Source of the DNA: a virus
Taxonomy: Duplodnaviria; Caudoviricetes
DNA: 64,000 nucleotides
Direction: 5' to 3' (one strand)
Virus record (IMG/VR): IMGVR_UViG_3300032030_000074
Span: 3,916 to 67,915 of that record
This document shows positions 12,038 to 64,000 of this stretch, piece after piece. Numbering within the stretch: position 1 is the stretch's first letter; each line of letters opens with the position of its first letter. Under the pieces are notes generated by a model. That model was not told the DNA's origin. It saw only the letters and a list, made by a program, of their open reading frames with translations, and searched no databases. Both the position numbers and the translations under genes were made by a program.

Positions 12038-12111
12038 GGGAGTTTAGTTTAACGGTAGAATGACGGTCTCCAAAACCATTGATGAGAGTTCGATTCTTTC
12101 AGCTCCTGCCA
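12038..12111 (+). tRNA. trnW: tRNA-Trp (CCA)
   Basis: Cloverleaf: acceptor GGGAGTT/AGCTCCT, anticodon loop CT-CCA-AA, T-loop TTCGATT, encoded 3' CCA. Confidence 0.9.
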
Positions 12112-42150: not shown

Positions 42151-42691
42151 AATCAGAATTGAACCGCCGCCCGACCTTCAGGCTAAACTTCAGCGTATTG
42201 CTATGATACCGGGCGCACTTGAAAAGGCGGCGAAAAATGCGGTCAAGCGAACATTGCGCGGCGGCAAACAGGATGCGTCACGTAAAATTGCTCAACGCTA
42301 TACAATTCGCGCTGGCGTCGTGGTACGCACGATAAAAATCAAGCAAGGCGGCTTAAACGGCGAAATGTCGTCACGCGGCGGAATAAATCCATTGAAATTA
42401 TTCCGAATCAAACCAAAAAGCCGCCCGCGCAAAATGCCTGCAGGCGGCGTATTCGTGCAAAACGTCAAGGGACAAGGCGGCTATATTCGACGCGGCTTTT
42501 TGACGCACAAAGGAAACGTCGTGGAGCGTGCAGGCATAAGTCGATATCCATTGCGCGGTTTAGGCGGTCCCTCGTCACCCGGTATGCTTGGCAATCCGAA
42601 TGTGGGTCCGTACATTGAAGATAAAATGTTTCAGCGTCTGCAGATTAATCTTGACCACGCGGCAAACGCGATTATCGGAGGCTTTTTTTGA
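42143..42691 (+). CDS. gpZ-like tail completion protein
   Basis: Basic; RYTIRAG..; RYPLRGLGGPSSPGM. Confidence 0.7.
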   Translation: MIEIRIEPPPDLQAKLQRIAMIPGALEKAAKNAVKRTLRGGKQDASRKIAQRYTIRAGVVVRTIKIKQGGLNGEMSSRGGINPLKLFRIKPKSRPRKMPAGGVFVQNVKGQGGYIRRGFLTHKGNVVERAGISRYPLRGLGGPSSPGMLGNPNVGPYIEDKMFQRLQINLDHAANAIIGGFF

Positions 42692-43322
42692 TTGAAAGTT
42701 TTTTGACAGGTCTGAAAAGACGTTCGCCGGTGTCACCATTTTTGATTCTTGCAAATAACGTAGCTCGATAAATTCCACTTTTTTCGGCGGCTTCAGCAAG
42801 TGTCATTGATTCACCTTTATATTCGACGATATGATTGCTACGTTGATTACGGGTTTGAGTTTTGCGGTCTGCCCAGCGCAAATTGTTAGGTTCATAGTTG
42901 CCATTATTGTCTATGCGGTCAAGCGTGTATCCTTCTTCTCCATAATGTTCAAGTTGGCTGACATAATCGTAAAACGCTTGAAAATTGTTAATCCAAGCAG
43001 GATAAACAGAAATGCCGCGTCCACCGTAATGTTTGTAAGCTCTATTGCCTTTTTCCAAACACCGCGCTAGCATATTTTGCCATGTACGGTAAATCTTAGT
43101 GCCACACATCCCGTGTTTGGTACTATATTTGATAATTCTTTCGCGTTTTTGGCAACCGCACGATGTAGTAAGATTGTGATTCAAAGCGCTAGCATCAACA
43201 ATAACGTCGTTACCACAATCACAACGGCACTTCCAACAAGCGCGTTTACCTTTGTTTTCGACGCGTTCAATGACGGTTAAGCGACCGAACTTCATACCCG
43301 TTAAATCTTTCAAATTCGACAT
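42672..43322 (-). CDS. HNH endonuclease A, antisense insertion
   Basis: DLTGMKFGRLTV...WKCRCDCG...TTSCGC...YGGRGI...TLDRIDNNGNYEPNNLRWA. Confidence 0.88.
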   Translation of the reverse strand: MSNLKDLTGMKFGRLTVIERVENKGKRACWKCRCDCGNDVIVDASALNHNLTTSCGCQKRERIIKYSTKHGMCGTKIYRTWQNMLARCLEKGNRAYKHYGGRGISVYPAWINNFQAFYDYVSQLEHYGEEGYTLDRIDNNGNYEPNNLRWADRKTQTRNQRSNHIVEYKGESMTLAEAAEKSGIYRATLFARIKNGDTGERLFRPVKKLSIKKSLR

Positions 43323-43337
43323 TTTATCACTCCTTTA

Positions 43338-43471
43338 TTGACTACAACCGCAAGGCGTGATAGAATTTAAAATACAAAATGCCCTGCAGTATTGCTTATT
43401 TAGTTCACGGCAATTATAGCAGAGGCGTTTTTGCTTTTCAAGAATATATTTCGCCGAAAGGCGATTTTTTT
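43338..43471. promoter_or_regulatory. convergent-promoter cassette A
   Basis: Plus TTGACT(43338)-17-TGnTAGAAT(43361); minus TTGAAA(43441)-17-TGCTATAAT(43418-13); terminator TCGCC-GAAA-GGCGA-T7. Confidence 0.8.
43372..43471 (+). ncRNA. predicted ~100 nt antisense sRNA A
   Basis: Promoter, long stem CAAAAUGCCCUGC/GCAGAGGCGUUUUUG with inner AUUGC/GCAAU, terminator; homologous to 53511-53610. Confidence 0.6.
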
Positions 43472-43490
43472 AGTTAGGAGATTTTTATAA

Positions 43491-44054
43491 ATGACGGCGG
43501 CAGATTTAGTATCGACATTGGCGAGCGAATTGCGTCAAGCTACAGAGCATTTTATTTTTCAAGCTGAATACCAAAAAGACAAAAAAGTCAGCGTTTATGA
43601 AGGCTATGTCCCCAGCGGCAATTTTACCAACGAAACATTTTTGCCAATGATAACGGTAGAATTTCGCGGCTTAGATGATATAGATGACGGCGCGACGTTG
43701 ACGGCAGGGCTTATGTTGGCAGTATACGGCGGCGAAAATGCGAAATATGACGGCGGACGCGAAAGAAAAGGCGAATTTTTCAAAGACTACGGCGACGGTT
43801 GGCGCGATTTAATAAATTTGGCGGAAACGGTACGACAATATTTGTGGACACGTCCCGACAGATATTTAGCCGACAAATATAAGCTTGTGAACTTGGTATT
43901 TGTCCCGCAACCCGACCAGCCCGAGCCTTTTTTCTACGGAGATATGGTATTGACGTTTTACACGGCGCAACCGTACACGCCGATAAATTATCCCGCCGAG
44001 TTCGAGGAATCGCGCGTACCAGTTCAACCTAGATTTAGGAGATTAAAAAGATGA
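43491..44054 (+). CDS. putative tail terminator protein
   Basis: Position before sheath; PEPFFYGDMVLTF. Confidence 0.6.
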   Translation: MTAADLVSTLASELRQATEHFIFQAEYQKDKKVSVYEGYVPSGNFTNETFLPMITVEFRGLDDIDDGATLTAGLMLAVYGGENAKYDGGRERKGEFFKDYGDGWRDLINLAETVRQYLWTRPDRYLADKYKLVNLVFVPQPDQPEPFFYGDMVLTFYTAQPYTPINYPAEFEESRVPVQPRFRRLKR

Positions 44055-44293
44055 ATACAATTTACATTGGACCCAGCAATCATAAACTGGGCTTAATTCA
44101 GTTCACGATTTACACTGAAAGACCGACGGCTTTAATAGACGGTTACAGAGCGGCAATTCCTATGATTGACCGCCTTTTTGTTTCAGTGGAGGAATTTTCA
44201 GAAGTTGAAAAAGACTTGGAAAAGCCCGAAACGCTGATTTTTGCGGCGTGCAAGCAAGTCTTACAAGCAGGTAAAGAAGAGGTGAAAAAATAA
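44051..44293 (+). CDS. hypothetical protein
   Basis: MNTIYIGPS..; small gene before sheath. Confidence 0.6.
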   Translation: MNTIYIGPSNHKLGLIQFTIYTERPTALIDGYRAAIPMIDRLFVSVEEFSEVEKDLEKPETLIFAACKQVLQAGKEEVKK

Positions 44294-46009
44294 ATGGCTT
44301 ATAAACACGGCATATACTCAACCGAAGTACCGACATCAATCACGCCGCCCGTTACGATTGACGGCAACAGCGGTTTAGTAGTTGCATTCGGTACGGCTCC
44401 GATACATTTGGCGGCGGAACCGGCTAAACCTAACACGCCGATTTTGGCGCATTACTACAGCGAGGCAGTTAAGCAACTCGGCTACAGTGACGACTTCGAT
44501 AGTTACACTTTGTGCGAGGTTATGAAAAGTCAATTCGTGCTTTTCGGCGTGGCACCCGTTGTATTTGTAAACGTGCTTGACCCTACGAAACATTACACCG
44601 AAAATACATTTACGGCAGAGGGCATAGGCGCGACACCTGCGAATATCGGCAAGGACGCACTGATTGACACATTGGTAGTTACAAGCGGCGTCGACAAGGA
44701 GCCGGACGAACTGGTTAAAGATACAGACTACAGCATTACGACTACCAGCGAAGGTGAAGGCAGTGACACTGTCACGACTACGACGCTTAATATTTTGGCG
44801 CTTGATAACATTACGGACAATGCGATTGTGCTTGAATATCAGACGTCACGCGACACTGAAAATTTTGAACACGTCACGGCAGAGGTTGACGTCGGTACGT
44901 CAATCACTCTTGATTCCGATACAATTTTGTCAACGGTCAAGGTATTAAGCGGCGGTTCTGAAATGCGCACTTTGCAAGCGGACATTGACTTTAACGCGGC
45001 ACGCGACACGGACGGCGCCGTTGTTGTTACGCTGATTGACGATGCAAAGGTAGTTGACGATACAATTTCACTTAGCTACCACGAAGTGGACACGTCCAAA
45101 GTTACGGCAATGGATATTGTCGGCGGCGTTGACACAATGACGGGCGATATTACGGGGCTTGAATTAGTCGGCAGTATTTACCCGAGATTAGCGGTTTTGC
45201 CAGGCATAATCATTGCACCGAAATATTCAACCAATACGGCAGTTGCGGCGATTATGAAGGCAAAGGCTAAGTCAATCGACGACGTTTTCAAGGCGACGGC
45301 GATTGTTGACATTGACACGGAAGACGCGCGACTTTACACGGAGGCGGCAGAGCGAAAGGCGATTAATAATCTCGTCGATCCGTTTTTGTTTGTTTGCTAT
45401 CCTAAATTGTCACTTGACGGCGAGCAATATCACCTTTCAACGCAAATGGCGGCGCTGATGAATCAAGTTGACGCCGATAATAACGGCATACCTTATGTGG
45501 CACCTTCTAATCACAATTTGCAATGTGATTCTACGGTTAGAAAAGACGGTTCAGAGGTTTATTTCGGTCTGCAACAGTCAAATTACCTTAACGGCAACGG
45601 TATTTTAACGGCAATGAATTTTGCAAGCGGTTGGAGACTTTGGGGCAGTAGGACTTCCGCGTACCCTACGAACGCAGATGTTAAAGATAATTTCATACCA
45701 ATACGCCGAATGTTTAACTATATCAGCAATTCACTGATCCTTAACTTTTGGAGCCAAATTGATAACCCAACGAATAAGCGTTTGATTGAATCAATCGTGA
45801 CGTCGGCAAATATTTGGCTTGACAGCTTGACTTCGGCGGGTGCTTTACTCGGCGCACGTGTAGTATTTTTGCCGGAAGATAACGCGACGACAGATTTAAT
45901 GGACGGCATTTTAAAATTTCACATTTATATGACGCCGCCGCCCCCTGCACGTGAAATTGATTGGATACAAGAATACGATCCGAATTATTTGGCGACGTTA
46001 TTTGCATAA
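44294..46009 (+). CDS. tail sheath protein
   Basis: MAYKHGI..EVPTS, FGTAPIH, YLNGNGI, RLWGSRT, RRMFNYI, TPPPPA. Confidence 0.93.
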   Translation: MAYKHGIYSTEVPTSITPPVTIDGNSGLVVAFGTAPIHLAAEPAKPNTPILAHYYSEAVKQLGYSDDFDSYTLCEVMKSQFVLFGVAPVVFVNVLDPTKHYTENTFTAEGIGATPANIGKDALIDTLVVTSGVDKEPDELVKDTDYSITTTSEGEGSDTVTTTTLNILALDNITDNAIVLEYQTSRDTENFEHVTAEVDVGTSITLDSDTILSTVKVLSGGSEMRTLQADIDFNAARDTDGAVVVTLIDDAKVVDDTISLSYHEVDTSKVTAMDIVGGVDTMTGDITGLELVGSIYPRLAVLPGIIIAPKYSTNTAVAAIMKAKAKSIDDVFKATAIVDIDTEDARLYTEAAERKAINNLVDPFLFVCYPKLSLDGEQYHLSTQMAALMNQVDADNNGIPYVAPSNHNLQCDSTVRKDGSEVYFGLQQSNYLNGNGILTAMNFASGWRLWGSRTSAYPTNADVKDNFIPIRRMFNYISNSLILNFWSQIDNPTNKRLIESIVTSANIWLDSLTSAGALLGARVVFLPEDNATTDLMDGILKFHIYMTPPPPAREIDWIQEYDPNYLATLFA

Positions 46010-46032
46010 AATTTGCAAAAGAGGTGATTTAA

Positions 46033-46566
46033 ATGGCTGATTTGTCAGTTTTGCGCGGTATGACCGACAACTACGAATGTTATTATCGCGGCAACAGATT
46101 TTTAGGAATGACGACGGTTGAATTGCCGGACTTTAGCTTTTTGACAGCTGAAGTAAGCGGACCCGGCATAATGGGTAATTTAGAAATTCCTGCAATAGCT
46201 CATACCGAATCATTAGAATTAACGCTTAATTGGCGCACGATACATGAAGAAATGTTATTTGCGTTGCACCCGCACGCTCACGACTTAACGCTTAGAAGTT
46301 CCCAGCACAATTACGATCACGGCAACGGCAGGACGCTTAGTCAACCCGTACGCATTGATTTTCGCGGCTTGACGAAGAACGGTGGAATGGGCAAGCTTGA
46401 AAAGGCGACAGAAACCGAATCTAAAACTGTATTTGAACTGATAACACTTCAAATTTATGTAGACAATCAGAAACAGTTAGACTATGACAAACTGAATTAC
46501 AAATTTGAAGTTTACGGGGTAGATTATCTGCGTGATTATCGTCAATCAGTAGGACTTGACTTTTAG
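46033..46566 (+). CDS. tail tube protein, P2 FII-like
   Basis: VELPDF..EVSGPGIMG..; DKLNYKFEVYGVDYL. Confidence 0.88.
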   Translation: MADLSVLRGMTDNYECYYRGNRFLGMTTVELPDFSFLTAEVSGPGIMGNLEIPAIAHTESLELTLNWRTIHEEMLFALHPHAHDLTLRSSQHNYDHGNGRTLSQPVRIDFRGLTKNGGMGKLEKATETESKTVFELITLQIYVDNQKQLDYDKLNYKFEVYGVDYLRDYRQSVGLDF

Positions 46567-46577
46567 GAGTGATTTTA

Positions 46578-46913
46578 ATGGCGATTGAAAATATTAACCT
46601 TCCGAAATTAATTGACACGCTGAAAGAGAAATTGGACGACTTGACTGGGTTTGATTTTGAGGAAGTCGAAAGACAAGAGCGTTTAGCCGGAAACGCGGCG
46701 CCGAATGTATCTTTCACACCGTCATTTCGTACGAGGTTAGCGGCGAAGGCGTTGGGCGTAAATCCGCACGATATCAAGGAATTAAAGCTTAAGCAGTATA
46801 CAAAAGTAGATTTAGAGGTAATGACTTTTTTATTTGGCGATTCGGCGAAGGACGAGACGTCGTCAAATACTTACGAAGCACAGCTGCCGACCTTAAAGAG
46901 TGGGGAAGCATAG
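46578..46913 (+). CDS. tail assembly chaperone (gpE-like); -1 frameshift product would extend to 47023
   Basis: Position; slippery T TTT TTA at 46826-32 opens a 66-codon -1 frame ending TGA 47021-23. Confidence 0.8.
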   Translation: MAIENINLPKLIDTLKEKLDDLTGFDFEEVERQERLAGNAAPNVSFTPSFRTRLAAKALGVNPHDIKELKLKQYTKVDLEVMTFLFGDSAKDETSSNTYEAQLPTLKSGEA

Positions 46914-47030
46914 AATTTTGGATGAAACGTCCACTGTACGAGCTTGACAACTGGATAAAAATCATCAATGAAAAAGTCAGAAAACGCAACGCCGAAATGA
47001 AGGCGGCTAGTAAGAGGAGGTGAATTGTCA

Positions 47031-50000
47031 ATGGCGCGAACTTATGAAGTAGCTTTTAGAATCAGCGGCGCTTTAAACGGACAATTCGCCGCCGCAATGC
47101 AAGCCGCCCAAAACGCAATGCGCGGGTTAAGTACAGCGGCCCAGCAAGTCAACGCGGCAATGGCAGGGAGCGCCGGAACGTTATCACGCTATTTGAACAG
47201 TTTAAATCAAATGGCGGCGCAATCTAAAAAGTTTGCCGATTTAAAAGCCGCTATACCGCAGACACAATCTGCCTTGACTGCAGAGTTAGCCAAAATGGGG
47301 CAGTTGGCGACGGCGTACCGTCAGCAAAAAGCGCAGGTAGACGCAATGCGCGCGGCGTACCAACAATTAAAAGCTAAACAAGCGGATTTAAAAAAATCAT
47401 ATACCGATGAGCAAAATAAACTTAGAGGATTACAGGCATTAAAACAACAATATAAGCGTGAATTGGCTGAAAATGAAGCTAGACCACATAACCTTGAACA
47501 GATACAAAAAGCGGTACGGCTTGAAAGTCAGATAAAATCAACAACAGCCGCGATTGAGCAACAACGCCAAAAAATTCGCGAGGCAAAGTCGGTATACGAT
47601 ACTTTAACATCGGCAATGAAAGGTTCGTCCGCTGAATTACGCGCGGCAGAATCAGCGCTTAAACAATTAGGCAGTAATTTTGATTCGTCAAAGGCAAAAG
47701 TCACAGAGCTTATGAATACCCTGCGACGGCAAAAATCGGAACTTGCCGGTTTAAAATCGTCACTAAGTGCGGCGGGATTTTCAACAGACCATTTTATATC
47801 GTCTGAAATGCGGCTAAGGTCGGAAATCGCGGCAACTACAGCGGCGATTGAAAGGCAACGTCAAGCGGCGGCGTCATTGTCAGCGGCGCAGAATAATTTA
47901 AATGCGGCGTCAAGCAATTTCAGCGAGGCGCAATCTGCTTTTAATTCCGTACAGCAAGCGGTTGATGTTGTTGCCGCGCCGATACAAAAGTCCGTAGAAA
48001 CGGCAATGACTTTTGAACACGCGATGAGTCGAGTAAAAGCCTTGACGCAATCGCAAAATATACGCGAAGGCAAGACCGATGTCGTAGAAAAAGAATTTGC
48101 GGCGCTTGAAAAGCAAGCACTTGATTTAGGTGCTACGACAAAATTCACGGCAATTCAAGCGGCAGAGGCAATGAGCTTTCTTGGTCTTGCGGGTTGGAAA
48201 ACTAATCAGATACTAGGCACAATGCCGGGTATGCTTGATTTAGCGGCGGCGGCAGGCGCGGACTTAGCGCAAACTGCAGACATTGTGTCAGATAATATGA
48301 CGGCAATGGGCGTACCGGTCAAAGACGCGCCACATTTTATGGACGTCTACGCATATGCCTTGACTAATTCCAATGCGCGATTGACGGACTTCGGTGAAAC
48401 AATGAAGTACGCGGCGCCGGTAGCAAAGGCGTTTGGTTCAAGCCTAGACGAAACGGCGGCAATGGTAATGATGATGGCTAATGCCGGAATCAAAGGCTCT
48501 ATGGCAGGTACGTCACTTAGAATGGGCTTACTTCGATTAGCGGGACCACCTAAAACCGCGACGAAGGAAATGGAAAAATTAGGCTTGTCATTATCGGACG
48601 CACAAGCAGGCGCACTAGAGGCACAAGCGGTAATTGAGGGTTTAGGCATTGACTTAAAAGGTGCAACGTCACCGGCGGAAAAAATGACGCGGGTAATAAT
48701 GCAGTTGCACGAAAAAACCAAAAATCTTTCGCAGGACGAAAAATTAGCGGCGTTTAAAGGTATTTTCGGCGTCAACGCGGAGACAGGTTGGTTAGCGCTA
48801 TTCGATCAGGGACCCGATGTCTTTTTAAAATATGTCGAAGGGCTAAGAAATGCGGACGGTTATGCACGTCAAGTAGCGACGACGATGATGGACGACACGC
48901 AAGGCGCGATAACAATTCTTAAATCAGCAATGGAAAGCGCCTATTTAGCGGTCGGCAAAGCCTTGAATCCTGCAATACGCGCGGCGGCAGAGGCAGTAAC
49001 ACCGTTAATCAGCGCATTTACACAGTGGGCTAATGCTAACCCGCGTGTTGTACAAGGCATAGTCGGCATAATCGCGGCATTATCGGCATTGGCACTTGCA
49101 GTTACAGGCGTAGCAGTGGCGTTCGCGGCGTGGAGCTTTATCACGGCGCAATTTGCAATGTTTCAAGCGGGATTGGCGGCAGTTCGCGCGGGAATGATAG
49201 CTACAGAGGTTGCAAGTTTAGGAATGGCAGGGCGAATTGGCGCGGCGTTTGCAACGATACAAGCGACATTGGCGGGACTAACTTTTAGCGGCATTGCGGC
49301 TAGTGTATCGGCGGCATTTACAAAAATCGGTGCGGCGATAATGACGGCGGCGCGAGCGTCTTTGGCGTTTATAGCTACACCACTTGGTTTGTTTTTGACG
49401 GCATTGGCGGCGGCGGCTTACGTTATATATGAAAATTGGGACAGGATAGCACCTGCAATAAGTCAAGTGGGCGCGGCAATATCGTCTGCATTGGACGCGG
49501 CAAGTCAAGCAGTCAGCGGCTTAATGACGGCGCTGGGTCCAATCGGTGACGCAATATCACAGGCGTTTGGCGACATTTTGGGTATATGGGAAATCGAAGG
49601 CTTTACGGACGGCATCGTTGCGGCGTTTTTAGGTATTGTGAATATTGTTGCCGGTGTCGGAGTGTCAATAATCAATATCTTCACGGCGACTGTCCAAACT
49701 GTTACGGCATTAATTGAAGGTTTAAAAGATACATTTAGCGGTTTGGGCGAATTTATAAGCGCCGTGTTGACTTTTGATTTTGACAAAATGGGCGACAGCG
49801 CTATTTTATTGCAAAGTAAGATTGATAAAGCTTGGAGAGGTATAGACTTTGAAAAGGCGGACTTTGGCTATGATATAAGCGGAAATTTCCGTCAGCAATA
49901 TGCGGCGTACAAAAGAGCGCCCATAACACAACCATTTCAATCGGCGGCAGAAAATCAAGGTGCATTGTCAAATGCGGCGGCACTTTTTCAACCTGCACAA

Positions 50001-52256
50001 CCAGCACAACCGGCGGCACCTGCACCAATGCCGACACCTACACCTGCCGAAACACCTAATCTTGATACTTCGTCATTTACGGCGCAAATGCAAGCATTAG
50101 GCGCGGCGGCAGAGCAACCTGCACAAACTTTACCGCAAATCGGTCAAGGTGCGGAGCAAGTCAATCAATCACTTACAAATTTTTCAACGGCGGTTCAACC
50201 TGCTCAAGAATCAATAGCGCAACTTCCGCAAGCAATTCAACCCGTTCAAGACGCCTTAGCAAACTTCCCAGCGGCGATTGAACCTGCGACAACGGCGTTG
50301 CAAAATGTAGCTACGACAATCGAGCCGGTAAACGCAGGATTAACGGCATTGACGTCGGCAGTCACGGCTGAAACAACGGCGGTCACTGCACATACAGCGG
50401 CATTGACAGCAAACACGGCGCAAGTTACGGCGTCGACTTCGGCTTTACAAGCCTTCATTGCGGCGTTGCAAGCTACACTCGGAGCATTGCAAGCGTTCAC
50501 GGCGGCATTGCAAGCTACAATCAGCGGCTTAACGGCATTGGCGTCGGCAAGTTCAAGCGCGGCGACAAGCGTAGCGTCGTTAGGCTCAGCGGCAAGCAGT
50601 GCGGCAAGCGCAATGTCAAGCGCGGCGTCAAGTATAGCGTCAGCGGCAAGCAGTGCGGCAAGTGCGGCGGCAAGTGCAAGCGCGGCGGCGGCGTCTGCAG
50701 GAGCGAGTAAACCTGCGGCAAACTACAAAGGCGGCATTTACAACAAAGGCGCATTTCTTACGTGGTTTGCAGAGCGATCACCGGAGGCGGCAATTCCGCT
50801 TGATAAATCTGCACGCGCAATAAATTTGTGGACGCAAGCAGGTCAAATGTTAGGCGTCTTGCCTTCCGACAGTCCCGTTAATACAACGGCGGAGAAAATA
50901 CCGCGTGACAATACGCAACGCGCGATATTAACCTTTCAGAAATCGAAAGAGATAAAAGCACGGAAAATTTACAATTCTGTAGTAAATCAATCGGCGACGG
51001 AAAATTACAATACGTCGGCAGTACAAAATACGGCGTTGAGTAATGTCACGTCGACAGTTGAACGAATCAGCAATGTACAAAGGCGGGTTCAAAACTTACA
51101 AGCGGCGCAATTTGATGAATTAGGTAACATAATCGGATTGAACGGCGCGGCAGGTAACGTAATAACGCAGTACGACAGCGAACAGGTCAAGCACGTCAAG
51201 CAGGAACTACAGCTGAAAGAATTTGCCGAAAAGCAGGACGGCACGTCTAGCCTTGCACGGTATTTGGATAAATTCCGCAACTTAATCAGCAAAGTACGCG
51301 AAACCATACAGCCGGCATCGCAACCAGCTGAAAAAATTCCCGCGCCGACAATTTTGTTTGAAAGTCAGCGTTGGCGGTCTGAATCACCTACGCGCGAAAA
51401 GACGCTTGACCGAGTTGCCAACAGTCGAAGTTATCAAGCTATCGTAAATGCACAGCGTCAATCGGTAGTAAATTCGCACCGAAATATGACGCGGCAGAAT
51501 ACGCGGACGTCGATTTTAAATGCACCTGCCGAGTTGCAAACTACCCTGCCTACAGACAGATACAAAAATCTGAATATCGGCGGTTTTAATCTGCGTGATA
51601 TCCCGTTTGTAGGTGACATTTTCGGCAAGGCGAATGACGCATTGCGCGGCATTTTCGGCAAGCAACCCGTTGACATATTCAGCGGCATTGGCAAAAGTGT
51701 AGATTATGAGATTATGCACCCGCGCGGCACATTTCCTACCCTTCCGGCGGAAACACAACCGCAGGGCAATTTGCCTACAGATATTTTTAAAAATGTCGGT
51801 GGCGTAAATTTAGATAATGTACCGATAATCGGCGGCTTGATTGGCAAGGCGAATGACGCATTACGCGGCATTTTCGGCAAGCAACCCGTTGACGTTATCA
51901 GCGACATTACAGGCGGCGCGAAGGCTCAGGCAAGTTATGACATAATGCATCCTACAGGTACATTTCCGACATTGCAGAGTAATTCGGCACCAATGCTTGA
52001 CAGGATACAAAACCTGCAGTCAAGCGTGACAGATAATCGGCTGGAAGATGTTAAGACGTACGAAGGCGGCACGTCCAATGATTATTCAGCGGCGGCATTT
52101 CAGCCGACTTTTAATATAACGGTTACTATCACCGGTAGCGGCGAGCAAGTCGACACAAAAAAAATCGGCGAGCAGATCGCCTATTCGGCGTGTGAAAGTT
52201 TTGAAAGGAAGTACAATAACTTTATGCGTGAAAAATCAAGGAGGGGTTTTGCGTGA
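47031..52256 (+). CDS. tape measure protein (TP901-type core) with long C-terminal extension
   Basis: FEHAMSRVKAL, LGATTKFTAIQAAEAM, AGIKGSMAGTSLR; Ala-rich helical. Confidence 0.92.
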   Translation: MARTYEVAFRISGALNGQFAAAMQAAQNAMRGLSTAAQQVNAAMAGSAGTLSRYLNSLNQMAAQSKKFADLKAAIPQTQSALTAELAKMGQLATAYRQQKAQVDAMRAAYQQLKAKQADLKKSYTDEQNKLRGLQALKQQYKRELAENEARPHNLEQIQKAVRLESQIKSTTAAIEQQRQKIREAKSVYDTLTSAMKGSSAELRAAESALKQLGSNFDSSKAKVTELMNTLRRQKSELAGLKSSLSAAGFSTDHFISSEMRLRSEIAATTAAIERQRQAAASLSAAQNNLNAASSNFSEAQSAFNSVQQAVDVVAAPIQKSVETAMTFEHAMSRVKALTQSQNIREGKTDVVEKEFAALEKQALDLGATTKFTAIQAAEAMSFLGLAGWKTNQILGTMPGMLDLAAAAGADLAQTADIVSDNMTAMGVPVKDAPHFMDVYAYALTNSNARLTDFGETMKYAAPVAKAFGSSLDETAAMVMMMANAGIKGSMAGTSLRMGLLRLAGPPKTATKEMEKLGLSLSDAQAGALEAQAVIEGLGIDLKGATSPAEKMTRVIMQLHEKTKNLSQDEKLAAFKGIFGVNAETGWLALFDQGPDVFLKYVEGLRNADGYARQVATTMMDDTQGAITILKSAMESAYLAVGKALNPAIRAAAEAVTPLISAFTQWANANPRVVQGIVGIIAALSALALAVTGVAVAFAAWSFITAQFAMFQAGLAAVRAGMIATEVASLGMAGRIGAAFATIQATLAGLTFSGIAASVSAAFTKIGAAIMTAARASLAFIATPLGLFLTALAAAAYVIYENWDRIAPAISQVGAAISSALDAASQAVSGLMTALGPIGDAISQAFGDILGIWEIEGFTDGIVAAFLGIVNIVAGVGVSIINIFTATVQTVTALIEGLKDTFSGLGEFISAVLTFDFDKMGDSAILLQSKIDKAWRGIDFEKADFGYDISGNFRQQYAAYKRAPITQPFQSAAENQGALSNAAALFQPAQPAQPAAPAPMPTPTPAETPNLDTSSFTAQMQALGAAAEQPAQTLPQIGQGAEQVNQSLTNFSTAVQPAQESIAQLPQAIQPVQDALANFPAAIEPATTALQNVATTIEPVNAGLTALTSAVTAETTAVTAHTAALTANTAQVTASTSALQAFIAALQATLGALQAFTAALQATISGLTALASASSSAATSVASLGSAASSAASAMSSAASSIASAASSAASAAASASAAAASAGASKPAANYKGGIYNKGAFLTWFAERSPEAAIPLDKSARAINLWTQAGQMLGVLPSDSPVNTTAEKIPRDNTQRAILTFQKSKEIKARKIYNSVVNQSATENYNTSAVQNTALSNVTSTVERISNVQRRVQNLQAAQFDELGNIIGLNGAAGNVITQYDSEQVKHVKQELQLKEFAEKQDGTSSLARYLDKFRNLISKVRETIQPASQPAEKIPAPTILFESQRWRSESPTREKTLDRVANSRSYQAIVNAQRQSVVNSHRNMTRQNTRTSILNAPAELQTTLPTDRYKNLNIGGFNLRDIPFVGDIFGKANDALRGIFGKQPVDIFSGIGKSVDYEIMHPRGTFPTLPAETQPQGNLPTDIFKNVGGVNLDNVPIIGGLIGKANDALRGIFGKQPVDVISDITGGAKAQASYDIMHPTGTFPTLQSNSAPMLDRIQNLQSSVTDNRLEDVKTYEGGTSNDYSAAAFQPTFNITVTITGSGEQVDTKKIGEQIAYSACESFERKYNNFMREKSRRGFA

Positions 52257-52450
52257 CGTATACGACGCAGAGCGGCGACACGTGGGACGTGATTGCGCAT
52301 AAGACGCTGGGCGATAGTCGCTACACCGAAGATTTAATCAATGCCAACAGGCAATATATCACGACATTTATTTTTTCAGCGGGTGTGAAATTGGAAATAC
52401 CCGCGATTAGTAAAACTAAAACAAAAACGCTCCCGCCGTGGAAGCGTTAA
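52253..52450 (+). CDS. tail protein X (P2 gpX-like)
   Basis: YTTQSGDTWDVIA...LINAN...FSAGVKLEIP...LPPWKR. Confidence 0.88.
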   Translation: MTYTTQSGDTWDVIAHKTLGDSRYTEDLINANRQYITTFIFSAGVKLEIPAISKTKTKTLPPWKR

Positions 52451-52471
52451 TTTTTTTTGGAGGTATGAAAA

Positions 52472-52750
52472 ATGTTAGGTTCAATCAAATTTGAAAATAT
52501 CACCGATTTAACAAAATTGCCGCAAAAACCCGCAACGGCACTTTCGGTGCTTGAAAGTCCTATTGCAGGTGCAGGATACAAAGGTTTAATGTACGTCGGC
52601 AAGCAAACAGTGAAAGGCGTCAATTATTGGTTTATCGCGCACCAAACCTTGACATTGAGAGAGCCGGAAGAGCATATTGTAAAAATTGCGGTGAATGACT
52701 TCAAAGGCAAAATGAAAATTGCGGCAGGATCAATCGAACGAATTTTTTAA
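52472..52750 (+). CDS. hypothetical protein
   Basis: RBS ggagg; 92 aa. Confidence 0.6.
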   Translation: MLGSIKFENITDLTKLPQKPATALSVLESPIAGAGYKGLMYVGKQTVKGVNYWFIAHQTLTLREPEEHIVKIAVNDFKGKMKIAAGSIERIF

Positions 52751-53460
52751 GATTTATTTCGCGAACGACTATGTTTTTGTGCGCAGTTGCGACTACAATA
52801 AATTTTGCGGTTATTGCTAGTTAAAAATTTATTACCACACTGCGCACAAACTTTTTCTTTCACGGCAACTTTGTCCCGCCACATTTTATTCGCGCATTCG
52901 AGAGAGCAGGTTTGAGTTTTGGCGTCTGAACGAACTCGGAATCTTTTGTTGCAAATAGCACAATGCCTATATTCATAATGGCGGTGACCTATATCTCTAC
53001 ATTCTTTTGAACAATAAGAATTTTGGCGAGTGTTGGTAGTTGAAAAAGTTTTGCCACATTGTTTGCAGGTAAAAATGCGCGGTGTGTCATAAGTGACGGC
53101 GGCATTACCTTGAGGTTTGTGAATTTTTTGGTGTTCAGAACGTGTGACTAAAAGCAAGTTAGAAATATCATTGTTAGCTTTATTTCTGTCGATATGATGA
53201 ATATCATAACCGGAAGGAATTTCGCCGTAATAATATGTGTAAACGGCGCGGTGAATGTGAAAAGTAGCACGGTAATGCCCTTGTACGTCAGAAAAATAAT
53301 TAATACCGTTAAATTTTTGATGAGTATCGTCAACGACTTCAACGGTCGGCGGCGCGGTTAAATCGCGCTCCAAAACGGCAATGCGGTGACGTTCAAAGTC
53401 ATTTTCGGCGTTGTCTTTGAGAGTTTGCAGAGCCGCTTGAATTTCAGGGGTAAATTTCAT
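52747..53460 (-). CDS. HNH endonuclease B with three Cys4 repeats, antisense insertion
   Basis: IHRAVY..YGEIP...DIHHIDRNKANNDISNL...EHQKIH; three CxxC...CSxxC units. Confidence 0.88.
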   Translation of the reverse strand: MKFTPEIQAALQTLKDNAENDFERHRIAVLERDLTAPPTVEVVDDTHQKFNGINYFSDVQGHYRATFHIHRAVYTYYYGEIPSGYDIHHIDRNKANNDISNLLLVTRSEHQKIHKPQGNAAVTYDTPRIFTCKQCGKTFSTTNTRQNSYCSKECRDIGHRHYEYRHCAICNKRFRVRSDAKTQTCSLECANKMWRDKVAVKEKVCAQCGNKFLTSNNRKIYCSRNCAQKHSRSRNKS

Positions 53461-53476
53461 ATGAATCAATCCTTTC

Positions 53477-53610
53477 TTGACTTTAGCCCGCAGGATTGAT
53501 AAAATAAAAATACAAAATTCCTGCGGGATTGTCTATTGGTTACACGGCAATTTTACCACAGGGATTTTTGCTTTTCAAGAAAAAATATTTGGCGCCGAAA
53601 GGCGCTTTTT
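53477..53610. promoter_or_regulatory. convergent-promoter cassette B
   Basis: Plus TTGACT(53477)-17-TGnTAAAAT(53500); minus TTGAAA(53578)-17-TGGTAAAAT(53555-50); terminator GCGCC-GAAA-GGCGC-T5. Confidence 0.8.
53511..53610 (+). ncRNA. predicted ~100 nt antisense sRNA B
   Basis: Stem AAAAUUCCUG/CAGGGAUUUU with inner AUUGUC/GGCAAU; same layout as sRNA A. Confidence 0.6.
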
Positions 53611-53623
53611 GTTTGGTAATTTT

Positions 53624-54643
53624 ATGAAAGCAAGAAATATAAGAGTTGAAATAGAAGTCAACGGCAAAAATATCACGGACGAGATAAGCACTTACGTTAA
53701 ATCCGTTTCCTATACTGATGTTTTGGACGGAGAGGCGGATACTGCCGAAATTTTACTTCAAGATGCCAATAGAATTTGGTGTGAAGATTGGTTCCCGCAA
53801 CGCGGCGACACGGTTAAAATTACTTTGATTCGTCAAAATTGGAATGGCGAAGAAGTAGAAATATTGCCTTTGGATTTTTGGGAAATTGACGAATGTGAAA
53901 ACGATTACAGCTACGGCGGCGGCAATGAATGCAAAGTCAAGCTTAATTCCATTCCCAATAACACGGGACTTCGTAGCATTGATGAAAGTCACAGTTGGGA
54001 AAAAGTCAAGCTGTCTAAAATCGCAGGTGACATTGCGGCAGAGGCGGGCTTAACTTTATTTTACGATACAAAAGAGGATCCCGAGATAGCACGCGCCGAG
54101 CAGTCGGAGTTATCCAATTTGGCTTTTTTGCAGAAATTATGCAAAGACAAGGGCTTAGCTTTAAAGGCGTCGGATCGTAAATTAATTATCTTTGACGAAG
54201 AAAAGTACGAAGGGCAAACGCCGATTGTTACTTTGCACTACGGCACGGACGCCATTAAACATTTTGGCGGTAAAGCCACGATATCTAAAATTTATAAATC
54301 CTGCAAAGTCGAATACAAGCACGGCAAGAAGTCAGAGGAAATTTCCGCCGAATATACCGACCCCAGCAAGAAAGACGGAATGACGCTTAAAATCAATCAA
54401 AAAGTGGAGACTAAGGCAGAGGCTGAAAAGCTTGCCAAGAAAAAATTGCGCGAAAAAAATAAAGAGGAAATTAAAATCTCATTGACGCTTGTCGGCAACT
54501 TTGTATATCTCAGCGGCAACGTCATAGAGTTTGCAGGTCACGGCTTTTACGACGGAAATTATATTATCGAAAAGGCTACGCACAAAGTAGGAAACGGTTA
54601 TGAAGTGTCAGTGGACTTGCGTAAATGTTTATCCGGCTATTAG
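53624..54643 (+). CDS. baseplate hub, P2 gpD/late control D family
   Basis: VSYTD..DGEADT..I.L; QSELSNLAFLQKLC; YIIEKATH. Confidence 0.9.
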   Translation: MKARNIRVEIEVNGKNITDEISTYVKSVSYTDVLDGEADTAEILLQDANRIWCEDWFPQRGDTVKITLIRQNWNGEEVEILPLDFWEIDECENDYSYGGGNECKVKLNSIPNNTGLRSIDESHSWEKVKLSKIAGDIAAEAGLTLFYDTKEDPEIARAEQSELSNLAFLQKLCKDKGLALKASDRKLIIFDEEKYEGQTPIVTLHYGTDAIKHFGGKATISKIYKSCKVEYKHGKKSEEISAEYTDPSKKDGMTLKINQKVETKAEAEKLAKKKLREKNKEEIKISLTLVGNFVYLSGNVIEFAGHGFYDGNYIIEKATHKVGNGYEVSVDLRKCLSGY

Positions 54644-63867: not shown

Positions 63868-64000
63868 TGATTATTGACAGGTCTGAAAAGACGTTCGCCG
63901 GTGTCACCATTTTTGATTCTTGCAAATAACGTAGCTCGATAAATTCCACTTTTTTCGGCGGCTTCAGCAAGTGTCATTGATTCACCTTTATATTCGACGA
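63864..64000 (-). CDS. 3' end of a second copy of HNH endonuclease A (truncated by window)
   Basis: 63874-64000 is identical to 42703-42829; this copy ends RLFRPVNNH*. Confidence 0.85.
   Translation of the reverse strand, partial: VEYKGESMTLAEAAEKSGIYRATLFARIKNGDTGERLFRPVNNH

Follow-up and report, generated by a model that had tools for sequence, protein, structure and literature searches.

Phage homing endonucleases are known to be controlled by promoter choice, by hairpins over the ribosome-binding site and by autorepression, and keeping the free-standing kind from harming the phage host is a named open area in the T4 literature (PMC2988022). Antisense control of a gene on a selfish element has been described for the RNA-IN/RNA-OUT pair of IS10/Tn10 (PMC5006887), and CfrI, an antisense RNA of cyanophage S-PM2, is linked to an endonuclease gene (Millard et al. 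2010, following the summary in PMC12197685). Here, a cassette found upstream of two HNH nuclease genes, HNH-A and HNH-B, is described from a 64,000-nucleotide (nt) stretch of a temperate phage of Selenomonadaceae. This stretch, the window, corresponds to bases 3916-67915 of the 67,915-bp IMG/VR viral contig IMGVR_UViG_3300032030_000074. The cassette has a conserved layout, is tied to nuclease genes, is placed within a mobile insert and shows covariation in both of its helices. On the reading developed below, the element would be a gene devoted to an antisense RNA, mobile together with the nuclease it accompanies and common to unrelated nuclease families.

Layout of the cassette

The contig carries three cassette copies, A and B inside the window and C at the contig start outside it. 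Covariance-model searches placed cassette A at 43336..43474 (142.4 bits with model R1 and 95.7 bits with model R2) and cassette B at 53475..53615 (142.8 and 114.6 bits, respectively), both on the plus strand, while cassette C (L001:247-385) heads the 5′ part of an HNH-A paralogue gene. The original prediction, made from the letters of the window, had pointed to the same ∼135-bp layout upstream of HNH-A and HNH-B; it is present at both, and all three shared blocks were found. One shared block, TTTTTGCTTTTCAAGA, occurs exactly twice in the window, compared with 0.26 occurrences expected, and a third time at the contig start. The opposing promoters and GAAA-loop terminators that had been proposed were recovered by a consensus scan. 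Between 41 and 56 kb, the four cassette promoters were the only sites that joined a 17-nt spacer and a TG extension to 10 or more of 12 matches.

In copy A, the putative plus-strand promoter of the small RNA (43338..43366) consists of TTGACT, a 17-nt spacer that contains arm 1 and a TG-extended TAGAAT, and the opposing minus-strand promoter of the nuclease gene (43441-43413) consists of TTGAAA, a 17-nt spacer that contains arm 3 and a TG-extended TATAAT. Their counterparts in copy B are TTGACT-17-TAAAAT on the plus strand (53477-53505) and TTGAAA-17-TAAAAT on the minus strand (53578-53550). Both putative promoters of the cassette are host-type, σ70-like and near consensus. The plus-strand GAAA-loop terminators identified by the consensus scan lie at 43451-43464 in copy A and 53591-53606 in copy B, each followed by a T run.

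The antisense small RNA predicted for copy A (∼99 nt; 43373..43471, plus strand, with predicted ends) has a 5′ tail, a long stem formed by arms 2 and 3, the GAAA-loop terminator and the T run, and that of copy B spans ∼100 nt (53512..53610, plus strand). On the other strand, the predicted HNH-A mRNA leader (∼84 nt; 43323..43406, minus strand) overlaps small RNA A in its 5′ ∼34 nt, forms a hairpin (arm 2′/arm 1′) and then presents a Shine-Dalgarno site that abuts the plus −35 box, an abutment found in each copy. The predicted HNH-B leader (53461..53543, minus strand) has the hairpin CCCGCAGGA/UCCUGCGGG; a leader hairpin of its own had been expected for the nuclease mRNA, and folding of the minus strand agrees. 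In the modeled three-arm design, arm 2 pairs with arm 3 in the small RNA, and the complement of arm 2 pairs with arm 1′ in the mRNA leader. Arm 3 lies inside the nuclease-promoter spacer, arm 1′ is transcribed from the small-RNA-promoter spacer, and arm 2 lies between the predicted starts, which are ∼32 to 34 nt apart in copies A, B, and C. Because the two promoters and three arms are nearly mirror-symmetric, the cassettes at L133:301-460, L136:1501-1660, L127:2404-2562, and L130:1501-1667 also scored with the covariance model on the opposite strand (22 to 25 bits).

Distribution and associated nuclease genes

HNH-A (42672..43322, minus strand) is a free-standing HNH endonuclease gene encoding 216 amino acids (phrog_374; E value, 2.8e−71). 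HNH-B (52747..53460, minus strand) encodes an HNH_3 endonuclease of 237 amino acids with Cys-rich C-terminal repeats (PF13392 HNH_3; E value, 3.2e−18; phrog_15471) and starts at the ATG at 53460, not at the TTG at 53469 as had been assumed. The two products, which had been singled out for their different architectures, were unrelated by BLASTP (E value, 0.04).

Covariance-model searches identified more than 60 additional copies, located in phage contigs from the rumen and in prophages of Selenomonadaceae, nearly all directly upstream of a free-standing nuclease gene of the HNH_3, second HNH, GIY-YIG, Bro-N or ORF6N/T5orf172 type. Model R1, built from five copies, was used on loci that had been gathered for their HNH_3 similarity in IMG/VR, metagenomes and GTDB genomes. 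Its 25 matches were all on the strand opposite the nuclease and nearly all just upstream of the nuclease gene, and extra matches in the flanks of these loci headed further HNH_3 genes, giving tandem arrays. The organisms named for the matched loci were rumen Selenomonadaceae/Selenomonadales metagenome-assembled genomes (MAGs), Quinella and one MAG labelled Christensenellaceae. In Selenomonadaceae MAG contigs (L030, L031, L035, L041, and L133), HNH_3 genes stood two or three in a row at a spacing of ∼1.0 to 1.2 kb, each with a cassette. IMG/VR relatives of HNH-B (42 to 48% identity) had the same layout with different stem sequences. No cassette match was obtained with R1 in ∼80 more distant HNH_3 loci (L048-L125), or by covariance model in eight HNH-A-type loci of other phages (L011-L018).

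Model R2, built from 28 sequences, was run over whole genomes without protein-similarity seeding. Five MAGs holding cassette loci gave 24 matches (2 to 8 per genome), most with a minus-side gene start 17 to 18 nt from the cassette edge. The neighbors were 11 HNH_3-type genes (one a fragment), 11 GIY-YIG genes (nine Pfam confirmed, and many with NUMOD3 and HTH domains), one Bro-N gene and one unclear gene. In an even sample of Selenomonadaceae, 8/151 genomes matched R2 at E values of ≤1e−4; 12 of the 17 new matches head GIY-YIG-type genes (nine Pfam confirmed), one heads an ORF6N + T5orf172 gene, and four are doubtful (L154, beside an acetolactate-synthase-like gene, L155, L161, and L165). A further 150 genomes, taken from the rest of the class, gave no R2 match, a result that doubles as a specificity control. 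BLASTN searches of INPHARED phages identified no match to either cassette, and of the pattern scans of IMG/VR, where the record of the window and its close relatives may be missing, one was empty and the other gave two chance matches within coding sequence.

Rfam 15, whose families include RNA-OUT, HEARO/ω RNA and type I antitoxin RNAs, gave no cassette match at the gathering score in the window, in line with the original prediction that the RNA is unassignable to a known family. The sole gathering-level match in the window was a tRNA gene at 12038-12108. When the three copies were searched at E values up to 5, isrQ (RF01399) alone was returned, and nothing was found at the cassette positions of twelve loci of other subfamilies. 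An isrQ identity was rejected: the hits (43323-43474, 53462-53615, and L001:236-381) cover the full model length and are subthreshold (18 to 24 bits versus 50), probably reflecting likeness in composition and terminator. The cassette is classed as an RNA family without an Rfam match and as a putative variant of cis-antisense control, not as a member of the IS10 family.

The consistent link between the RNA and nuclease genes would also fit a small RNA that is not a regulator and serves the nuclease as a cofactor, be it a guide, a scaffold or a homing template. IscB with its HEARO/ω RNA is a precedent for an HNH-associated RNA; there, a RuvC + HNH protein of ∼400 to 500 amino acids is accompanied by an RNA of ∼200 to 300 nt upstream on the same strand. 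An IscB/HEARO system was rejected for the cassette, whose proteins (130 to 390 amino acids) have HNH_3 or GIY-YIG domains only and no RuvC, whose RNA is on the opposite strand, and for which no Rfam match to HEARO was found. The partners have unrelated folds (HNH, GIY-YIG, and Bro-N), so a common RNA-binding surface is unlikely; the proteins are homing endonucleases of the small classical kind and bring DNA-binding modules of their own (NUMOD3, HTH, and zinc fingers), and it is the pairing of the RNA, not its sequence, that is conserved. The idea of a nuclease-bound RNA, raised at the outset as an alternative, thus found no support, and a cofactor role is extremely improbable.

The cassette as part of mobile inserts

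In a contig of a ∼95%-identical phage (run X3), position 42680 is fused directly to 43480, with 799 bp absent, and the empty site runs up to the ribosome-binding site of the next gene. Mobile insert A (42681..43479) accordingly comprises HNH-A and the entire cassette A, terminator included. At the second site, contigs in runs X3 and X1 link 52751 to 53657 with 61 other letters replacing HNH-B and cassette B; mobile insert B (52752..53656) takes in HNH-B and cassette B and reaches ∼30 nt into the next gene. Because related phages lack exactly gene and cassette, the cassette is counted as part of the mobile insert, as judged from these junctions. The suggestion that it is a portable unit is strongly supported, since the empty sites lack both parts and the layout is shared by five nuclease types (HNH_3, phrog_374-type HNH, GIY-YIG, Bro-N, and ORF6N/T5orf172). 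A search of IMG/VR with the downstream virion protein for empty-site relatives gave no result. The cargo appears to consist of free-standing homing endonucleases, having homing-family nuclease domains (HNH_3, phrog_374, and GIY-YIG with NUMOD3), presence/absence among close relatives and an intergenic position.

A relative in run X7 keeps cassette A (at least 90% identity starting at 43323, with single nucleotides deleted at 43395 and 43404) and has ∼744 nt of nonaligning sequence in place of the HNH-A open reading frame (window 42586-43323). A different gene may therefore stand behind cassette A in this relative.

The third nuclease unit, the HNH-A paralogue with cassette C, straddles the contig ends (L001:1-398 and window 63874-64000), with ∼260 bp of the gene missing. 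The 5′ end of the gene is at L001:1-241, and its 3′ end (63874..64000, minus strand) is identical to 42703-42829 at 127/127 positions, which places an assembly break inside the unit. This repeat is the probable point at which the assembly ended, and the genome is probably circular or circularly permuted. Cassette C carries B-type arms and an A-type terminator although its gene is HNH-A-type, and is evidently a recombinant; its overlap region is identical to that of copy B over ∼30 nt. Because of this combination, the arms do not track the encoded protein.

Conservation of promoters and terminators

All 46 distinct aligned copies had a plus −35 box (TTGACA-like), a 16- to 18-nt spacer and a TAnAAT box, and in most of them the nuclease start codon was ∼17 to 18 nt from the plus −35 box. 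The small-RNA promoter was nearer consensus than the nuclease promoter in 30/46 copies and weaker in 7/46. The predicted starts were 26 to 44 nt apart (median, 34), with predicted lengths of ∼90 to 125 nt for the plus RNA and 83 to 102 nt for the nuclease mRNA leader.

These counts bear on whether the nuclease mRNA alone could matter, with a promoter and a 5′ hairpin that stabilizes the mRNA or masks the ribosome-binding site, and with the plus-strand “promoter” as a by-product of the AT richness of the leader that yields no functional RNA. Such an arrangement would account for the predicted leader hairpin and for the alternative helix over the ribosome-binding site described below, and masking hairpins of this sort are documented for I-TevI, segB, and mobE (PMC2988022). 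It does not account for the plus −35 and −10 hexamers, which are kept with 17-nt spacing in 46/46 copies and are the nearer to consensus, nor for the dedicated terminator downstream of arm 3. Arm 3 itself lies outside the predicted mRNA and still covaries with arm 2, with plus-strand G-U pairs. An element acting through the nuclease mRNA alone is therefore improbable.

A terminator-like hairpin followed by a T run was present in 32/46 copies. This count speaks against a second alternative, in which the plus-strand unit would serve the phage operon by directing transcription outward through a structured leader (an attenuator, a put-like antiterminator or a site of RNase III processing) and would restore or tune expression of the late genes downstream of the nuclease gene. 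The nuclease genes do lie opposite to the flanking structural genes, with the next plus-strand gene within tens of bases of the cassette; a clear terminator is absent from 14/46 copies, and terminators within a late operon imply read-through. A restart promoter is nevertheless contradicted by the hairpin and T run that stand right before the downstream gene in most copies. Furthermore, pairing with arm 1′ in the nuclease leader places a second constraint on arm 2 (in the HNH type-2 group, with G-U pairs of mRNA sense), the invariant abutment of Shine-Dalgarno site and plus −35 box ties the unit to the nuclease, and the stem sequences vary freely, unlike those of put RNAs. A role in the phage operon is thus considered unlikely.

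The plus strand of the window carries a myovirus-type structural module (major capsid, tail completion, sheath, a 1743-amino-acid tape measure, and baseplate proteins), and HNH-A and HNH-B lie on the minus strand within it. The cassette terminators (43451-43471 and 53591-53611) are within this late structural operon and immediately precede the next gene. Late transcripts arriving from upstream would be antisense to the nuclease genes and must pass the terminators or be restarted.

Fold and covariation of the predicted plus-strand RNA

A ∼100-nt RNA with a long stem, as first proposed, was predicted in copies A, B, and C, each of which folded far more stably than shuffled controls (z = −4.1, −3.9, and −3.0, respectively). 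The fold energies were −29.8 kcal/mol (z = −4.07) for small RNA A and −30.9 kcal/mol (z = −3.88) for small RNA B. RNAalifold gave no consensus structure on a MAFFT alignment of 44 leaders, because the arms are out of register by 1 to 2 nt between subfamilies, and per-sequence folds and cognate/noncognate duplex energies were therefore used. The energies were −23.0 (cognate) versus −15.0 (noncognate) kcal/mol for arm 2/arm 3 and −18.7 versus −12.4 kcal/mol for arm 2/arm 1; in these calculations, each arm matches its own partner.

Covariation among homologues, the check to which the predicted RNA was to be put, was found. In the 46-sequence alignment, fitted like the other pair-count alignment to the model structure, which favors structure, standard pairs made up 85.8% of cells, compared with 61.7% after shuffling and 34 to 49% with slid partners. 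The covariation score was 0.586, compared with 0.204 (shuffled) and 0.059 to 0.153 (slid partners), and pairing statistics were similar on the 28-sequence alignment. Changes on both sides were seen in 20/22 pairs. The basal helix was 94.6% paired, with 8/9 pairs varying on both sides and up to five pair types per position, and the plus strand had 48 G-U wobbles versus 10 A-C mismatches. The slid-partner control and the independent per-sequence folds both point to a real signal. A structured plus-strand RNA is thus supported by covariation, and its expression is predicted.

Arms 1 and 3 coincide with the promoter spacers and arm 2 falls between the starts, positions that would be natural for operators. 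The arms might be bound as DNA by a protein (a phage repressor or an autorepressing nuclease), and the RNA helices might be a side effect of repeated operator half-sites in the spacers. I-TevI provides a precedent for autorepression (PMC2988022), and a preference for the mRNA sense is absent in some GIY-YIG copies. Protein operators are nonetheless very unlikely, given arms that are free to vary, accept G-U pairs and are independent of the encoded protein. Arm sequences differ widely among copies within one genome, independent of the protein (cassette C), G-U is tolerated 48 to 10 over A-C, and the leader helix of the type-2 group holds at the RNA level only. The layout is, moreover, common to unrelated nuclease families with different DNA-binding domains.

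Predicted structure of the nuclease leader

On the strand opposite the small RNA, almost every copy had a predicted leader hairpin (arm 2′/arm 1′). This helix was far more stable in the mRNA sense in the HNH type-2 group (about −20 versus −12 kcal/mol). In GIY-YIG-associated copies, for example at L144:470-631, L148:1501-1662, and L149:595-757, the arm 1-arm 2 helix had −22 to −29 kcal/mol in the plus sense versus −17 to −22 kcal/mol in the mRNA sense.

An alternative helix that joins the Shine-Dalgarno site and AUG to arm 1′ and the plus −10 complement was predicted in the HNH type-2 group and in copies B (AUCAAUCCU with AGGAUUGAU) and C, and was absent from copy A and the GIY-YIG group. Arm 1′ as a universal CCUCC-like anti-Shine-Dalgarno sequence was rejected; this is true of some type-1 copies only, and the broader helix also uses the plus −10 complement. 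When the overlap was masked, the Shine-Dalgarno site and start codon were 0.32 unpaired compared with 0.43 in shuffled leaders (Wilcoxon P = 6e−5, which overstates independence because many of the tested leaders are close relatives), and the effect was strongest in the HNH type-2 group and missing from copy A and the GIY-YIG group. The mRNA 5′ tail was 0.70 unpaired in predicted folds, and the small-RNA segment complementary to mRNA nt 1 to 12 was 0.54 unpaired in silico, compared with 0.23 for the stem.

Proposed mechanism

The cassette probably acts by an IS10-like cis-antisense damping of the nuclease, accompanied in HNH subfamilies by a refolding of the leader that masks the ribosome-binding site. 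For this we infer that both promoters fire, where the RNAs end and in which direction regulation runs. The minus promoter would produce the nuclease mRNA, and the plus promoter would produce the small RNA, ending at its own terminator. The apical loop of the small RNA and the single-stranded 5′ tail of the mRNA are predicted to be complementary, and the two RNAs could therefore nucleate there and then zip into a 26- to 44-bp duplex, in the manner of RNA-IN and RNA-OUT of IS10; duplex formation would dissolve the leader hairpin. In HNH subfamilies, including copies B and C, the freed arm 1′ and the plus −10 complement could then pair with the Shine-Dalgarno site and start codon and turn translation off. 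Antisense pairing would in this way convert an open leader to a masked one in part of the family. Cleavage of the duplex and mutual occlusion of the close, facing promoters may add to repression. The net effect would be a nuclease output that is low or pulsed and drops as copy number rises.

Besides the cautions on alignment fitting and on related leaders given above, several findings weigh against this proposal. The overlap is limited to the first 26 to 44 nt of the leader and ends 30 to 45 nt before the Shine-Dalgarno site; the direct IS10 mechanism is therefore inapplicable, and repression must be indirect. Masking of the ribosome-binding site is unsupported in the GIY-YIG subfamily and copy A, and several GIY-YIG copies have an arm 1-arm 2 helix more stable in the plus sense, which the model leaves unexplained. 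In the 14 copies without a clear terminator, the plus transcript may enter downstream genes. Runs X1 and X2, which are sheep-gut metatranscriptomes, hold the phage as contigs and hence give no starts, ends or strand; 34 to 41% of sampled words were present, in short contigs of depth 1 to 6 that may include DNA. The switch comparable to IS10 RNA-OUT that had originally been envisaged thus stands as the best fit to the predicted promoters and folds, except that the overlap does not reach the ribosome-binding site.

More tentatively, the small RNAs could act in trans and form a specificity-coded immunity or copy-control network among homing endonucleases, an extension that is possible but doubtful. 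Copies that share an arm 2 (B and C, for instance) would silence each other, copies with diverged arms, such as A, would escape, and matching nuclease genes on coinfecting or superinfecting relatives would also be silenced. The conserved cassette could double as a recombination handle for swapping nuclease open reading frames behind it (compare run X7).

If the proposal is true, transposon-style control logic, as in IS10, would be added to homing elements, and an RNA family outside Rfam with clear covariation would be defined. The compact three-arm design would also be open to simple reporter tests, which are feasible because both promoters are of the host σ70 type.

Comparison with known systems

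The antisense RNA CfrI of S-PM2 is likewise encoded by a phage and lies in physical linkage with a homing endonuclease gene, F-CphI. In the summary given in PMC12197685, CfrI links psbA to the neighboring endonuclease gene in one phage lineage and is not described as a portable cassette of unrelated nucleases or as a facing promoter pair at 5′ ends.

The T-even genes I-TevI, segB, and mobE share with the cassette a leader RNA structure around the ribosome-binding site that controls translation of the homing endonuclease, and in T-even phages, too, the regulatory element travels with the nuclease gene (PMC2988022). Control in T4 differs in that the masking strand is included or not according to the promoter used (early, middle, or late), and no dedicated antisense-RNA gene or facing promoter pair is described for these cases (PMC2988022), whereas the putative cassette promoters are of the host σ70 type.

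IS10/Tn10 RNA-IN/RNA-OUT differs in its cargo, a transposase rather than a phage homing endonuclease, and has no sequence or Rfam relation to the cassette. The IS10 overlap of 35 nt covers the translation start and blocks the ribosome directly, and its antisense RNA is 69 nt long (PMC5006887), whereas the cassette RNA would be ∼100 nt long with its own terminator, and the three-arm design couples both predicted RNA folds to both promoter spacers. The two also have features in common. Each places the gene of a selfish element under its own facing promoter pair (putative in the cassette), of which the antisense promoter is the stronger in IS10 and more often the nearer to consensus in the cassette, and in each the first ∼35 nt of the mRNA would be matched in full by a small antisense RNA of stem-loop form, which for the cassette is a prediction (PMC5006887). 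As in IS10, the predicted facing transcripts of the cassette share a few tens of nucleotides where their 5′ ends overlap, in silico folds suggest that the mRNA 5′ end may contact the antisense-RNA loop, and copy-number-dependent damping would be expected (PMC5006887).

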